Virus record (IMG/VR): IMGVR_UViG_2874951433_000009 | Direction: 5' to 3' (one strand) | Source of the DNA: a virus | Taxonomy: Duplodnaviria; Heunggongvirae; Uroviricota; Caudoviricetes | Length of the DNA stretch: 44,404 nucleotides | Part shown: one piece after another, positions 5,709-36,710 of the stretch | Layout: every line of letters begins with the position of its first letter | How positions within the stretch are numbered: position 1 is the first letter of the stretch | The notes under the pieces: generated by a model | Told to the model about the DNA's origin: nothing | Databases searched by the model: none | Seen by the model: the letters and a program-made list of their open reading frames with translations, nothing else | Translations under genes and position numbers: made by a program

Positions 5709-6116
5709 TTATTTATTTTCCTCTGGTTTTTTCGGCCACTCTATATTTTTTATATCAACACGCATCAATAGCACCCGATATTTTTTCCATGCCAGTAACA
5801 GTTTCGTTTCATCATCTGTTGCCATATCTAAATCAACCGCATCCTGAAGCGGCGCTATTACATTCGTTGCCTCTGCTATCAGTGCAGATTTCTTTTCATT
5901 ATTTATTAAGGCTAATTGTTCTGGTGTTGGAGAAGGACGGTCAACAATGACAGGGTGACCATTCTCACCACAGGTAATCATTTTTGTTACACTCTGCGAA
6001 TTAATCAGTGTTTTCCACTCTGATTCCGAGATTTCCACTGCATCATCAGGAATATTGGTGCCGTGAAATTCAGTCGAATAAAATCCGTTTGTCGATGCAG
6101 AATAAAAATATGACAT
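5709..6116 (-). CDS. Tail fibre assembly protein (Tfa family), about 135 aa
   Basis: [13 protein letters not shown]... and C-terminal ...[16 protein letters not shown]...[15 protein letters not shown] signature of the Tfa chaperone family; the annotated ORF (5709-6212) has an upstream Met that would overlap the fibre gene, so the internal start at 6116 is preferred. Confidence 0.8.
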
Positions 6117-6120
6117 TTCG

Positions 6121-6771
6121 TTAATATCCCATTGCAATGTAATACGCATCAGCAGATGAACCATATCCTGAACCGGGCGACACTGTAATATCAAATCCAG
6201 TGTTATGGACATTTGTCGCCGATACAGTCGGCTGCCCTGACGCGCCAGTAACTTTTAATGTAACTACGACAGCAATGACTCTTGAGAACGTCATCGGAAA
6301 CTTCATCCCGTATGTTGAAGATACATTCGGGGCACCATTCAACTGACCACACTGTAAAATTAATCCAGACGGAAATTTTTGCGCAGCAGCCGTTACGGTA
6401 TTAATTGACGCGAACAGGCTCATATCAGGTATCTGATTCGCCCCTGTACCTACATTCCTTTTAGCTGCTTCTCCCAAACCAAGGTTTTCGAGAGCCGTTT
6501 TCACCGTGCCATCCGATTTGATATCGCCAAACGGATTCTTGCGGCTTAACAGCAGCGCGCGAAGTGCGGTAAGCAACTGATCGTGCCGCCCCTTCTCCAG
6601 GCTGGCACCGGATGCCTCCACCACGCTGCAAAGCTCCTCCTGCAACATGTCAAAGTAGTCATCATCCAGATCGGTGGCAGGCGTGCCAGTCTGGGGGTTA
6701 CCACGGGTAAAACCGTTCTTACCCGCGCCGAACTTATCCTTCTGCGCGGTTTTCGTGTCTATACGATGCAT
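6121..6771 (-). CDS. Tail fibre protein (short, 216 aa) with conserved N-terminal fibre domain
   Basis: N-terminus [33 protein letters not shown]... typical of side tail fibre N-termini; position between baseplate genes and tfa. Confidence 0.7.
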
Positions 6772-6774
6772 GGA

Positions 6775-32570: not shown

Positions 32571-33481
32571 TATCGAATTCCTTTATTCAGTTGCGCCTTG
32601 AGCTTGCGGTACGTCTCTACATCCCCTTTGTTTGCTGCCGCCTCCATCTGCTTTTCAATCGCAGAGATATTTGCAGCAACAGCATGTCCCTGAATGGGTT
32701 CATCAGGTAACGGGGCTTCTGAAACAGGCTTGGCTCGAGGCTTGAGAGTTAAACGTTCTGACAGTCGAGTGAGTTCAATCAGCGCGGATTGCCCGTCCAT
32801 CGCCAGCAACTGGCGTGTTTTCTCAGGATTAGCACCAAGGTGATACATGAGAGCGGCGGATTTCTCCGGGAAGAGGCGCATGATGTCGGCACCGACTGCT
32901 GGCGGCACCAGTTGCATGAATGCATCCTCTTTCTCCTGATAGTCAGGGATATTGAGCTTTTCCGCTGCGTCGTAGTGCTTACGGGCCGCCTCGACGTATT
33001 GCGCTGATTGCTGGGTGAACTCCTGAGTTTTGCGACCCTGCTCGGCGACAGCCTGGCTTCGTGCGTCCATAGCCTTGATCTGCCATTCACTGTTTGCCTG
33101 CTGGAAGGCAGCCAGTGCGCGGCTCTGGTCATAGTCGTACTTAGCCAGTGCATCTTCGGAAAGATAATCGTTAGGGTCTGGTTGTTTTGGTAACTCAGGG
33201 TTCACCCGCAGGTGCTCCGGCAACTCTCCACGCTTAACCGCTTCCATCTGCTGCTCAAGCTCACGCTGGCGTTTGCGTTCGATGCGGCGACGGGCAAATT
33301 CAGCATTAGTTGCCGGGTCTTGTTTTGGTTTCTCATCGTCTTTCAGGACAATCTCAAAGCCTTCTTCCTGACCTGCGCTGTCGTTGGCATTATCGACAAC
33401 TAAGCCATCAGCAGATGCCGCTGCATGATTGCCGGGCAGGGTTAATTCTTCAGAAGCCTGAATGTCGGTGGTTTGGTCCAT
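32570..33481 (-). CDS. P22-like scaffolding protein (gp8 family), 303 aa
   Basis: Acidic helical protein of P22 gp8 size, between portal and coat genes. Confidence 0.8.
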
Positions 33482-33494
33482 GATTAACTCTCTC

Positions 33495-35660
33495 TTATTG
33501 AGGTGTCTCGGCTACTCCGCCGGAGGGGATTTGAACTTGACGCATAAGATTCGCGAAATCCATGCGTTGTGAATGAGTCTGGTCTGCATCTTTAAGAAGC
33601 AGCTCAGCGTTAGCACGAGCATCTTTGCTGCGCTGTTGCTGGAATTGACCTACGAGCCTGAGGTACTCACGCAGTTCTGCCTGCTTGTCGAGGTCCATAT
33701 TGTTGAATATTTCTGCAATCTTCGCGGCGTTGAGTTGGTTTTGGGCTTCAACCTTGGCAGCTTCAACCTGAATCTGCGCCTGTTGGTTCTCTGCCTTGAG
33801 CAATTCAGCCTGACCTTGCAGAAGGATACCCTGCGCCTGAATTTGCTCTGCTGATGGCTGCTGCGGCTGTTGTTGTGCCTGCTGCACCATCTCCATCTCT
33901 TCAGGTGTTTCTGGTTTCTTCAGCCCCATCATCACCAGTTGCTTGTTCGCGTACTCTCGCATCATCTCGACGCCTTTACCGTCAAGCAGCGTGAAGTATT
34001 GCAGCATCAGCATCTGGAACTCTGGAGTACCTTGCGGAACCTTGGTGAGCAACTCCTGAATCTCTGCGCGGTTCTGTTCCTTCATACTCTGGAAGGATGG
34101 CCCAACGTCTGTATAGCACTCATATCGACCGCGAATGTCGTTGAGTGTGACCACATTGCCGGACTGGTAATCGACAACTTGCGCATAGAGTTGAACGTCT
34201 TTCTCGCTTCCATCTTCAAGTGTCAGCGTTACATGACGAGGAACGTCATAAATATCGTTGACCATTGAGGCATAAATCTCGCCATCACGTCGCATTGCGG
34301 TAGCCAGGTTATCCTGAAACACGTATGTCTCAAGGTCTGCCCGCATGTTCAGTTGATTGACGGTATCAAAAGCGACCTGACCATTTGCCGCCTGCGCATC
34401 CACGCCAAGACTAGCCACTTCTTTCACTGCGTTGGTGGCAGCCTCAAGCATGTAAGCGTTGGCTTGCGGCACTTCAGGGTTTTCCATGTAGGAGATTGGA
34501 CCAATCGGCAGGTCGTTACCGTTTTCATCGGTCCTGTTCTGCAGATAGTACGGATAGTCATCATTTCCGCCGTACATGTATTCGTAGCCTTCGATTTGCT
34601 CAGGGAAGAAGGTCGGTTTCTTCTTCGGTGACCGAGCAACAATATCGGCGTTGAACGACATAATCATGTTACGAAGGCGTTGACCGTCTTTCGTCAGCCT
34701 TACCACACCCTCGTAGCACTCCTTGTCACCAGCGAATGACCATTCGCCATACACTGGAACGATTGGAATATGCTCTCCGGCTATCTTCTCGCGGTCTTTC
34801 AGTATCTGCGTACAGGTGATGATCGACTTATACACACGCCGACGCTTCACCTTGCGCTCTGCTACCTTAATGAATCCACGATTAGCCAGGTCGTCGATGA
34901 CGTCTTTGATATCCTGCTGGTAATAGCTGACCGGCTCACCTGTCAGCGGGTCGCGGTAGATGAAGACCTTCTCCTTCTCCTCTTCTACCTCGTAATACTC
35001 AGCGACGTAGACGACATCATTCGACACCCACGGGAATAGCCATGTATCGTTAGGATTCTGGAAAGATGGCAGGGTATCCGGGTCAATACCGTAATCCTCT
35101 GCGAACTCTTTCCAGCCATTGCGCGACAAGGCGTTAATCACCGTGCAGTGCTTAGCGTCGCTCTTATCCATCTGCTTGCTGTTGGCGTCCCATATGACGT
35201 GTGAGCAGGCTTCATGGATTGGCAGGCGTCGGATTACCTGATTGTTGCTTGTTGGATCGTTGTCTTCGTACTGCGTGACCAGACGCCATGCACCAACGCC
35301 TGACTCTATCTGCTCACGAACGCCAACGTTAACGGCAATCTTTGCCGTGTTATGGCGCATATCAGTACGATACATCCCCATCAATACATCGGCTGCATCA
35401 GGATTAGCGCCGTCTTTGGGTCGGAAGAGAACGTCGACAGGGTTCCGGCGCATCTCTGCGACCAGTTTCCTGACCTCCGGGCGAACAACATCGAATTGTC
35501 CGCGATATTGCAGGGTAGTGTAGTTTGATAGCCAGTCATCCCATTGCGACACTCGGCTAAAATACAGGTCATTTGTCGCCTCGGTTCTGGCTTCATCGCT
35601 CGCCATCCAGTCTGCGTCAAACTTACACAGAATGGAATTGAGTCTGTTTTCGTCGGCCAT
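33495..35660 (-). CDS. P22-like portal protein (gp1 family), 721 aa, intact
   Basis: [45 protein letters not shown]... strong similarity to P22 gp1 including the C-terminal barrel region. Confidence 0.9.
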
Positions 35661-36710
35661 TTAAGTTCTCCGTGCGATGGGCCTGATTGGGGCTGGTATC
35701 TTTTTCTCTTTTGGTTTTTTGATGTCGCGCATCATTTTTGCGAAGCGGCGCATCATGTATGCATAGCGAACGGCGGATAGCACGTCGTCGTTAAGCTTGA
35801 CGATTTTCCCGTTTTCATCACGGTGATAGAGGCGGAACTCCTCAAAGAATGGCTCACAGGTATTGAATACTTTGAAGCGACCATCGAGCATCATGTCGCG
35901 CAATTCAGTGATGCCTGGCTCAACAGCGTTACCGCCATCAGGCCATGTCGCATGCTCCTGCAACATCATAAATCCAGCGTCTGCATACTGCCCTTTGAGC
36001 TGCTCACCGCCGCCCTTCTCGTGCTGGTTTCCATCATGAGGCCATGCGGTTGGCACTTTATGCGCCCATGATTTAACGGCTCCCCACGCCTGAACGGCTG
36101 TTTTTTCTTTCGCCTTCCACACGCGTGAAACGTAGATTGTGTCTGCCTCCTTATCCCACCAAAGCTGAACTTGCGCCTGTGGGTGATCCCATCCGAAATC
36201 CATCCCGCCAATTACGTAGAAGTGATCAGGACACTCGAACGGCTGACACTTAATCGTCTCTTCCGGTATCTGGAAGATTCGACCACTACCCATCGTAGGA
36301 ATACCGCGAGCACGCGCCTCTCTCTCATGCTCGGGATATGATGCGATGATTTGCTCTTTCTGCTCGTCGGTATAGTGCTCAGCGTCATAGATGGTCATGT
36401 TGACCACTTTCTGCGACTTGCTGGGGTTCTTCAGGAACTTGGTAACAACGTCAGACATCCCCATCAGCGGGGTAAACGTCAGAATTGAGAATTGCCCGTA
36501 TTTGTTGGTACGGGTAAGACCTTCGCCATAAATGCTGTATGGTGGCTCTTCGTCAAACCACACGCCGTGAATTGTGTCACCCTGCCAGCGAGCACGGCCT
36601 TGCGAGTATGGCTTGAAGTAGCAGATTGAAATGCCATCTTCAACGCCATCAGCCGTGTGATGCTTAACCAGAAGGTGATCAACAAGGTTCGGAAAGAAAG
36701 GTGAAGTGGC
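35661..36710 (-). pseudogene. P22-like large terminase, N-terminally truncated (about 350 C-terminal codons remain), cut by IS911
   Basis: Frame open from the IS911 terminus into a nuclease-domain-like terminase C-terminus ending next to the portal start; N-terminal ATPase region and terS are absent. Confidence 0.75.

Follow-up and report, generated by a model that had tools for sequence, protein, structure and literature searches.

The closest described counterpart of the locus considered here is the serotype-conversion island SHI-O of Shigella flexneri serotype 5b strain 8401 (Sf8401; CP000266.1), which is reported to hold gtrV and ~15 kb of SfV sequence rearranged via insertion sequences (ISs), and in which the keeping of gtr during prophage decay is an established view (Nie et al. 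2006, PMC1550401). For the same chromosomal neighborhood, tandem integration of the phages SfI and SfX at thrW has been shown experimentally, and a map of the proA-yaiC region shows a remnant labeled "IS600, IS629, putative int" (Sun et al. 2011, PMC3306764). SfX has been described as a podovirus of P22-like type (PMC4159516), with thrW as its integration site (PMC3306764). Here we analyze a 44,404-nucleotide stretch of DNA, hereafter the window, held as IMG/VR virus record IMGVR_UViG_2874951433_000009, in which two unrelated phage morphogenesis modules, one of SfV/SfII type and one of P22 type, lie in tandem beside a gtrABV operon. A sequence-only reading had proposed that each module has its terminase disabled, and that serotype-conversion cargo, and possibly a tail module, is selectively retained while the prophages decay.

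The window is the thrW/proA serotype-conversion island, SHI-O, of an S. flexneri serotype 5 chromosome. As located by exact-protein look-ups, it is 100% identical to three loci of S. flexneri CP026799.1 (GCA_002950335.1) over all overlapping sequence, and strain 8401 has almost the same structure, with 99.9-99.97% identity over 1624-29317. Its SfV-like block at 2789-17649 agrees with the ~15 kb of SfV sequence described for 8401 (PMC1550401); the words "P22" and "terminase" are absent from that paper in a term search. The two loci match in gtrABV, the SfV-like remnant, the stub of its large terminase gene (terL), the IS nest between the modules and the junction with a truncated P22-like gene 16 (gp16'). 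They differ in that the window strain lacks the P22-like early region upstream of int, having IS600, an integrase fragment (int') and thrW there instead, and in that it carries a portal frameshift and a 4-bp deletion in an IS629-like element. The locus has thus already been published, and IS-driven prophage decay beside an intact gtrABV is ordinary for Shigella.

We consider it highly probable, taking the evidence below together, that the window consists of two IS-cut prophage remnants and an intact gtrABV, and that the structural genes of both remnants are inert passengers. One component would be the remnant of a P22-like, thrW-integrating lambdoid prophage, of which int, part of xis and the virion genes from the truncated terL (terL') through gp16' survive. 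The other would be the remnant of an SfV/SfII-family myovirus that delivered gtrABV and of which there remain, besides that operon, all tail genes, the head genes and a terL stub. The same attachment (att) core in thrW serves both phage types. IS600, the IS629-like element, IS911 and IS2 would have acted by insertion, adjacent deletion and inversion, removing both small terminase genes (terS), the segments of the two terL genes that code for the ATPase, the regulators and the tailspike gene; the window strain would in addition have lost half of xis and the P22-like early region. As for the order of these rearrangements, deletion and inversion at IS600 both fit.

Two modules without an intact terminase

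Both modules lie on the minus strand with only an IS nest between them, as the sequence-only reading had described, and neither remnant encodes an intact terminase. In the SfII-type large terminase (TerL), a stub of residues 439-577 of 577 amino acids (aa) is left at 21399..21818 on the minus strand (tblastn match 21402-21818). It retains only the last part of the nuclease domain, with TerL_nuclease as the sole Pfam family listed for it in the gene table of 8401; the entire ATPase region, including Walker A, is deleted. IS600 sequence begins exactly at 21819, with its terminal repeat, and cuts the gene there. The P22-type TerL, at 35661..36704 on the minus strand, lacks aa 1-152, into which its Walker A (aa 60-67) falls; aa 153-499 of 499 match at 99.7% (tblastn, 35664-36704). 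This gene adjoins a complete IS911 (36711..37966, minus strand, 99.8% to annotated IS911), which truncates it at its N-terminus, with the junction at 36710|36711. By tblastn, no match to an SfV/SfII-type terS, nor, with the proteins of the Lederbergvirus APC_JM3.2, to the P22-type terS (gene 3) or tailspike, was found anywhere in the window. Both claims of the earlier reading, that each large terminase is truncated by an IS with no terS present and that the tailspike is missing, are therefore borne out.

The other end of the P22-type module is also cut. Its last ejection protein, which is gp16-like, runs into an inverted IS600 end (24051|24052) after aa 573 of 911, so that aa 1-573 are kept at 24051-25769 within an open reading frame (ORF) spanning 24039-25769 on the minus strand. 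Could a terminase immediately beside the window rescue either module? None is present: to the left lie thrW, proA, proB, phoE and crl, and to the right, as read from sister assemblies, IS2, remnants of a type VI secretion system (T6SS), dnaQ and rnhA. From what is known of phage biology, neither remnant should be able to excise, replicate or package its DNA, so that the earlier claim that neither module can package stands in the part that concerns the genes encoded here, and in its functional part as an extrapolation from them.

The juxtaposition itself might be an artefact of assembly, produced by repeat collapse at IS600, given that the junction lies in repeated IS sequence and that three IS600 copies or fragments occur in the window. 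The order terL'|IS600'|IS629-like|'IS600|gp16' is nevertheless found in at least three independent assemblies, namely 8401 (CP000266.1, 2006), CP026799.1 and JGI contig 3300001148, which leaves this explanation with scarcely any probability and disposes of the chimeric misassembly that the earlier reading had raised against itself.

The SfV/SfII-type module

The stretch 2789-21818 matches the genomes of SfI, SfII, SfV and SfIV at ~97-98% (MegaBLAST against phage genomes), with 97.5% nucleotide identity to SfV over 2789-17649, where the SfV-like part stops. Every gene from the one for Tfa (5709-6212) to that for a 60-aa membrane protein (21205-21387) gives a full-length, gap-free tblastn match to SfII or SfV proteins, with ORF lengths equal to those of the references. 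The Mu-like tail and HK97-like head genes stand in phage gene order, with collinear full-length matches from SfII_03 to SfII_24. A complete, inducible prophage of this type is not present, as the window holds no cognate int or xis, terS or early genes.

The segment 5709..17157 on the minus strand is an SfV-type, Mu-like contractile tail module in which all genes are full length, at 92-100% aa identity to SfV and SfII, with Pfam families taken from the gene tables of identical loci. It runs, all on the minus strand, through Tfa (5709-6212), fiber (6121-6771), a gp48-like protein (6775-7359), baseplate J (7350-8408), gp46-like (8395-8823) and gp45-like (8820-9368) proteins, a P-like hub (9368-10447), an N-like protein (10444-11814), tape measure (11833-13668), chaperone (13810-14079), tube (14079-14435), sheath (14435-15931), a DUF2635 protein (15915-16085), terminator (16094-16654) and neck (16651-17157). 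The adjoining segment 17132..21387, likewise on the minus strand, encodes HK97-type head and connector proteins of the SfII/SfI rather than the SfV type: Hc1 (17132-17542), Ad1 (17539-17862), a 66-aa ORF (17865-18065), the major capsid protein (MCP; 18115-19320), the protease (19335-20021), the portal (19963-21205, with a +1 frameshift at 21155-21160) and the 60-aa membrane protein. These head genes are 93-99% identical to SfII at the aa level, whereas the SfV MCP and portal are 25% and 27% identical, respectively. The comparison with SfV and SfII that had been proposed thus places the tail with SfV and the head with SfII/SfI, and the label "SfV-like" holds for the tail but not for the MCP, protease and portal. 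Relative to SfV, SfII, SfI and SfIV, the remnant shares gtrA-gtrB-gtr(type) by an att core and the order of tail and head genes, at 97-98% nucleotide identity. It differs from them in being a mosaic of SfV-type gtrV and tail with an SfII/SfI-type head. Missing from it are terS, TerL residues 1-438, an int and xis of its own, and all early and regulatory sequence.

Similarly, the claim that the module is intact gene by gene holds for the other genes from Tfa to the 60-aa membrane protein but not for the portal gene. Compared with both 8401 and SfII, the portal gene is altered at 21155-21163 by a deletion of one nucleotide, an insertion of two and two substitutions (net +1), shifting the frame after codon 14, and the CP026799.1 gene call is 371 aa instead of 413 aa. 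The change makes an imperfect inverted repeat perfect, as an 18-bp repeat with a 3-nucleotide loop, CCGATGGCATCCGCCAGC-AGA-GCTGGCGGATGCCATCGG (window 21140-21180, minus strand). It looks like a quasipalindrome template-switch mutation, judged from this repeat, and was observed only in CP026799.1.

The P22-type module

The stretch 24052-36704 matches the Lederbergviruses APC_JM3.2, Dewey and IME10 at ~97% nucleotide identity. Protein-by-protein tblastn with APC_JM3.2 finds gp20, gp7, gp14, needle, gp10, gp4, coat, scaffold and portal at full length. All are encoded on the minus strand: gp20 at 25770-27101, gp7 at 27111-27803, gp14 at 27806-28261, a tail needle with knob at 28261-29109, gp10 at 29109-30527, gp4 at 30528-31091, a small ORF at 31006-31278, coat at 31275-32570, scaffold at 32570-33481 and portal at 33495-35660. 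Identical loci carry the Pfam families P22_portal, P22_CoatProtein, Phage-scaffold, P22_Tail-4, Phage_stabilise, Phage_tail_NK, P22_gp7, Inj_translocase and P22_gp16. The module accordingly has genes 1, 8, 5, 4, 10, 26, 14, 7, 20 and 16 in collinear order with P22-specific Pfam families; functional headful packaging genes (terS/gp3 with pac, and a complete TerL/gp2) and a tailspike are missing from it in the window.

Set beside IME10, APC_JM3.2 and Dewey, the remnant has the same gene order, 2-1-8-5-4-10-26-14-7-20-16, at 97% nucleotide and 96-99.7% aa identity. With P22-like podoviruses more broadly it shares a thrW-type integrase and a P22-like xis. It departs from them in lacking terS, TerL aa 1-152 and ~338 C-terminal aa of the gp16-like protein, in lacking the tailspike, mnt/arc and a gtr of its own, and in having a needle of the knobbed, 282-aa type. 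The earlier label "P22/Sf6-like" survives as P22-type only. We weighed an Sf6-type module and decided against it: the top matches, at 97% nucleotide identity, are to P22-type Lederbergviruses, Sf6 is not among the matches listed, and the needle knob alone is of the knobbed type.

The needle deserves a separate remark. The product of 28261-29109 (minus strand) is 282 aa long, with a knob at the C-terminus (PHROG "tail needle knob", Pfam Phage_tail_NK). Its identity to the 233-aa needle of APC_JM3.2 is 54%, in the N-terminal half only, in a phage that is otherwise 97-99% identical. Such a confined difference points to a local mosaic swap.

What kind of phage did this module come from? Other S. 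flexneri with an identical gp20 keep a complete right end, consisting of gp16, mnt, a 570-aa tailspike, gtrA-gtrB, a 421-aa Gtr, att and int. The 421-aa Gtr of these complete P22-like prophages is named only "glucosyl transferase" in its sources. Because the complete relatives carry gtrA-gtrB and this Gtr, the P22-like phage was itself a converting phage. In its gene order, its integration site and the morphology given in the literature, the P22-like element resembles SfX and may well have been SfX-like.

Both modules share long tracts, at 97% nucleotide identity, with circulating phages, SfI/SfII/SfV on one side and IME10/APC_JM3.2/Dewey on the other, and their mosaicism (SfV-type tail, SfII-type head, knobbed needle) implies that exchange happens in the phage population. 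It is conceivable on these grounds that the remnants are indirectly active, either as a gene reservoir for superinfecting phages of SfV/SfII or P22/SfX type or as beneficiaries of a helper terminase supplied in trans. The pac site of P22 lies inside gene 3, that is, terS. Packaging of the locus is unlikely, as gene 3 with pac is deleted and the SfV-type terS region is deleted too. Moreover, gene donation by recombination is a passive property of any remnant and not a function of this arrangement. We therefore hold an indirect activity of this kind to be unlikely.

The gtr operon and the hybrid attachment site

The gtr operon is intact, as had been claimed. On the plus strand, gtrA (3054-3416), gtrB (3413-4336) and gtrV (4333-5586) are all full length, with 99.2%, 100% and 97.4% aa identity to SfV GtrA, GtrB and GtrV, respectively, and GtrV has exactly the sequence of ABF02532.1 from 8401 and of a UniProt entry for the serotype 5a strain M90T. 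The genes stand in the order gtrA-gtrB-gtr(type) directly beside a thrW-derived att core, as in an SfV/SfII-family converting prophage. This operon, which confers the type V antigen by O-antigen glucosylation, is the only part of the locus with a selectable function.

The cassette is also found in other settings. At three loci, from E. coli assemblies and a Logan contig, an identical 417-aa GtrV occurs with gtrB, on unrelated phage backbones that have different baseplate and tail genes and at other chromosomal sites, for example beside an Arm-DNA-bind_3 integrase near fadL/mlaA. Given these unrelated backbones and sites, the gtrV cassette moves between phage types.

On the other side of the att core stands an intact int of 386 aa (1632..2792, plus strand), which is of the P22-like, thrW-integrating type and has 55% aa identity to the integrases of SfII and SfV. 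An identical int lies beside thrW-proA in many E. coli and Shigella genomes, where it is the last gene of the pL operon in P22-like prophages (N, cIII, kil, erf or recT, abc2, xis, int), and in 8401 a P22-like early region (sieB, ral, recT ... xis) continues straight into the same int. In the window, only the 3' remnant of the P22-type xis (1624..1755, plus strand) is left: IS600 cuts it at 1623|1624, so that its final 132 nucleotides remain and its 5' part is gone (in the corresponding 8401 locus, L015, xis spans 7076-7423, and window position 1624 is L015 position 7292). The earlier statement that int is intact is correct for the ORF, which belongs, however, to the P22-like element and not to the gtrV phage, and whose xis is cut.

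The att core itself, a copy of the 3' 46 bp of thrW, was mapped to 2807..2852 from the annotated attP core of SfI. SfV/SfII homology begins at 2789, and the inverted repeat shared with the copy on the thrW side stops exactly at 2852. There are thus two att sites, a thrW.att-int' site outside and at the left edge of the window and an int-att-gtrA site inside it. By its flanks, the arrangement int(P22-type)-att-gtrABV(SfV-type) is a hybrid P(P22-type)-O-P'(SfV-type) site, as expected if two phages had formed a tandem lysogen at thrW or if they had recombined in the conserved gtrAB/att segment. The tandem SfI-SfX lysogen (Sun et al. 2011, PMC3306764) offers a close parallel, with two converting-phage genomes side by side in the proA-thrW region and a hybrid att between the int of one phage and the gtrA of the other. 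It differs in that the partners in the window are both defective and rearranged and in that the window complex lies beyond the ancestral IS600/int' remnant and is inverted relative to thrW.

That remnant occupies the left end of the window. The int' fragment (1..359, minus strand) is the C-terminal part of a P22-type integrase gene and repeats 2434-2792 in inverted orientation at 98.6% identity. It is the remnant by thrW that is ancestral in S. flexneri, and the same 97-aa product stands beside IS600 in many S. flexneri genomes, including 2457T. The tRNA gene, thrW for tRNA-Thr(CGU), lies 15 bp to the left of position 1 (5579-5654 in L017, a matching locus of CP026799.1 in which window position 1 is 5669), followed by proA and proB. 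Next to int' is a complete IS600 of 1264 bp (360..1623, minus strand, 99.3% identity to annotated IS600; orfA 1257-1559, orfB 403-1221). It has no target-site duplication, and homology to 8401 resumes at 1624; the missing duplication marks it as a rearrangement or adjacent-deletion junction. The IS600|int' unit is ancestral in the species and occurs beside gtrI, gtrII or gtrIV-sized operons, or beside thrW, in many S. flexneri strains including 2457T.

The inverted copies of the int C-terminus and att core (1-359 against 2434-2852; 98.6-98.8%) bracket both IS600 and the complete int. With the att sites in inverted orientation, the intervening 3 kb could in principle be flipped by an active Int.

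Joining of the modules by insertion sequences

Between the modules lie, from left to right, the first 837 bp of an IS600 (IS600', 21819-22655, plus strand; found by self-BLAST and by BLAST to reference IS copies), a 1.3-kb IS3-family element (22662-23963, minus strand) with 98.9-99% identity to plasmid copies annotated only "IS3 family transposase", and the inverted left end of an IS600, of 85-88 bp (23964-24051; BLAST to reference IS copies). We call the 1.3-kb element IS629-like, a tentative attribution that draws on its terminal repeat and on the published map in which IS629 stands beside IS600 in the proA-yaiC region (PMC3306764). The same nest is present in 8401. The nest (21819..24051) is inert. 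Across the whole locus, IS600, IS911 and IS2 were assigned at ≥99% nucleotide identity over their full length with recognizable ends, and they give NCBIfam transpos_IS3 matches.

Two features of the IS629-like element may be noted. Its orfB is split into pieces of 118 and 222 aa by a 4-bp deletion at 23389 relative to 8401. Its ALIL frameshift pseudoknot is intact (23516-23632, minus strand; Rfam RF01497, 120 bits), and an Rfam scan of the whole window found this IS frameshift pseudoknot alone.

How old is the P22-like lesion? The terL'|IS911 junction at 36710|36711 recurs unchanged in CP026765.1 and in two serotype 2a strains, 2457T and CP026788.1; in 2457T the P22-like remnant lies ~65 kb from gtrII. 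Those strains and an 8401-like JGI contig also share the right flank, consisting of a lambdoid lysis fragment, IS2, T6SS remnants, dnaQ, rnhA and gloB. Since the same junction exists in other serotypes, the lesion is old and independent of serotype. By this comparison, the P22-like remnant is older than the acquisition of gtrV and is not decaying around the gtrV cargo, contrary to the earlier proposal, which does not fit with the same lesion in 2a strains, ~65 kb from gtrII in 2457T. In serotype 5, the two modules came to lie side by side secondarily, through IS600 and the IS629-like element.

Intact genes and the question of selection

Does the intactness of so many structural genes betray selection? 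Differences between the window and 8401 were counted over 1624-15586 and 8115-29317. There are four single-nucleotide polymorphisms (SNPs) outside ISs, two of them in tail-head genes, in addition to the portal event and changes inside ISs. With so few mutations, intact ORFs are uninformative about selection, and intactness reflects recency. Where more mutations have accumulated, they are disruptive ones. In CP026765.1, five of the eight differences in the coat-terL' interval are derived there, including a 1-bp deletion in the coat gene, and the portal is called as 156 + 558 aa; in the window strain, the genes disrupted are Rz, by a stop at codon 3, orfB of the IS629-like element and the portal gene. 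In strains of serotypes 1a and 2a the tails are down to fiber/Tfa fragments, and one E. coli gtrV locus has only Tfa, chaperone and tube left of its tail. Upstream of each module there is only IS sequence, and no late regulator, promoter-like site or same-strand lysis cassette was found upstream of the SfV-type module.

A contrary explanation is that the SfV-type tail module is kept by selection as a tailocin or other tail-derived device, with head and packaging genes dispensable and decaying. All 15 tail genes from neck to Tfa are indeed full length and 92-100% identical to those of the functional phages SfV and SfII, and the sole new disruptive mutation of the module hit a head gene, the portal, and no tail gene. 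Yet the MCP, protease and connectors are as intact as the tails, leaving no tail-specific pattern; two SNPs over the tail-head genes relative to 8401 mean that there has been no time for neutral decay to show; the module has a dead IS nest upstream and neither a late activator nor a promoter-like site nor a same-strand lysis cassette; and other S. flexneri lineages keep only the fiber/Tfa fragments and the E. coli gtrV locus only the Tfa, chaperone and tube genes mentioned above. R-type tailocins such as the R-pyocin clusters of Pseudomonas likewise combine a full set of contractile-tail genes with the lack of a working packaging apparatus, a likeness in gene content. The window cluster differs from them in having head genes, in lacking a dedicated regulator or in-cis lysis cassette, and in not being conserved across the species, so that the gene layout of an R-type tailocin (a tail without a head, own regulators and lysis genes, a conserved locus) is not found in the window. 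We judge selection for a tail-derived device to be highly improbable. A shade less probable again is the more specific idea that the 17-kb tail and connector cluster (8401, M90T-type, CP026799.1) is transcribed by read-through or SOS into tailocin-like particles directed against competing Shigella or E. coli; were it true, the cluster would be a domesticated weapon and not debris.

Selective retention of the tail module is thus not supported: head genes are equally intact, other lineages have lost their tails, the new disruptive mutation lies in the portal and only two SNPs separate the module from 8401. What stands of the earlier proposal is that gtr is kept while the prophage decays, which fits the published view of SHI-O (PMC1550401). 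We infer that the structural genes are unexpressed passengers, and that they owe their intact look to the short time available for neutral decay and not to selection.

Several points weigh against the account of two inert remnants around gtrABV. Full length is kept by all tail genes and by all but one of the head genes, which could be read as selection. The nest contains no outward promoter-like site, inward-facing IS600 promoters being the sole matches, in what was a consensus scan only. No intact terminase occurs in the immediate flanks, of which the right one beyond 44404 is taken from sister assemblies, with the rest of the genome outside the search. Finally, tandem integration and gtrAB/att recombination yield the same product, and either may have made the junction.

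The right end

Beyond IS911 lies a fragment of a lambdoid late region (37967..43164, plus strand; identified by Pfam and PHROGs scans and phage matches). It encodes, all on the plus strand, a 151-aa DUF6971 protein (38575-39030), a 405-aa ORF (39054-40271), a holin (41026-41241), a DUF1327 protein (41246-41560), a lysozyme (41616-42149), Rz with a stop at codon 3 (42146-42613) and a 172-aa ORF (42601-43119). These sole lysis genes, on the opposite strand beyond IS911, are neither in cis nor in orientation with either module.

Within this fragment, the DUF6971 protein and the 405-aa ORF lie between IS911 and the holin, the position of lambdoid cargo ("moron") genes; the latter ORF, which has a TTG start, has no exact protein on record and no Pfam or PHROG match. 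The interval 37960-39874 is absent from 2457T and CP026788.1. Rz is called as 149 aa in 2457T, CP026788.1 and CP026765.1 and as 155 aa in an 8401-like contig, and the codon-3 lesion may be common to several S. flexneri lineages. In place of the DUF1327 region (41250-41599), the 8401-like JGI contig (L034) has unrelated sequence, and the adjacent lysis region (41600-44404) is 98.1% identical to that contig as against 99.8% to CP026765.1 and CP026810.1, a pattern suggesting that S. flexneri lineages have recombined within the lysis fragment.

The window ends within an IS2 (43165..44404, minus strand, 99.5% to annotated IS2), cut by the window end and with a start uncertain by ~11 bp (43154-43165). 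To its right follow T6SS remnants, dnaQ, rnhA and gloB, as read at five loci from sister assemblies whose sequence agrees with the window up to its final nucleotide; this flank was located from the DUF1327 protein and the 172-aa ORF product.

Implications

The locus has little importance beyond annotation, and it shows the standard picture of Shigella genome evolution, in which converting phages bring O-antigen modification genes to thrW and IS expansion then fixes the cargo by destroying the phage. Three corrections follow for how it is read. First, the integrase beside gtrABV comes from a P22-like, probably SfX-type, element and not from the gtrV phage. Second, the P22-like remnant is ancestral to several serotypes, which makes its adjacency to the SfV-like remnant a secondary, IS-mediated join. 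Third, because strain divergence amounts to only a few SNPs, the intactness of structural genes in such islands is not readable as selection.

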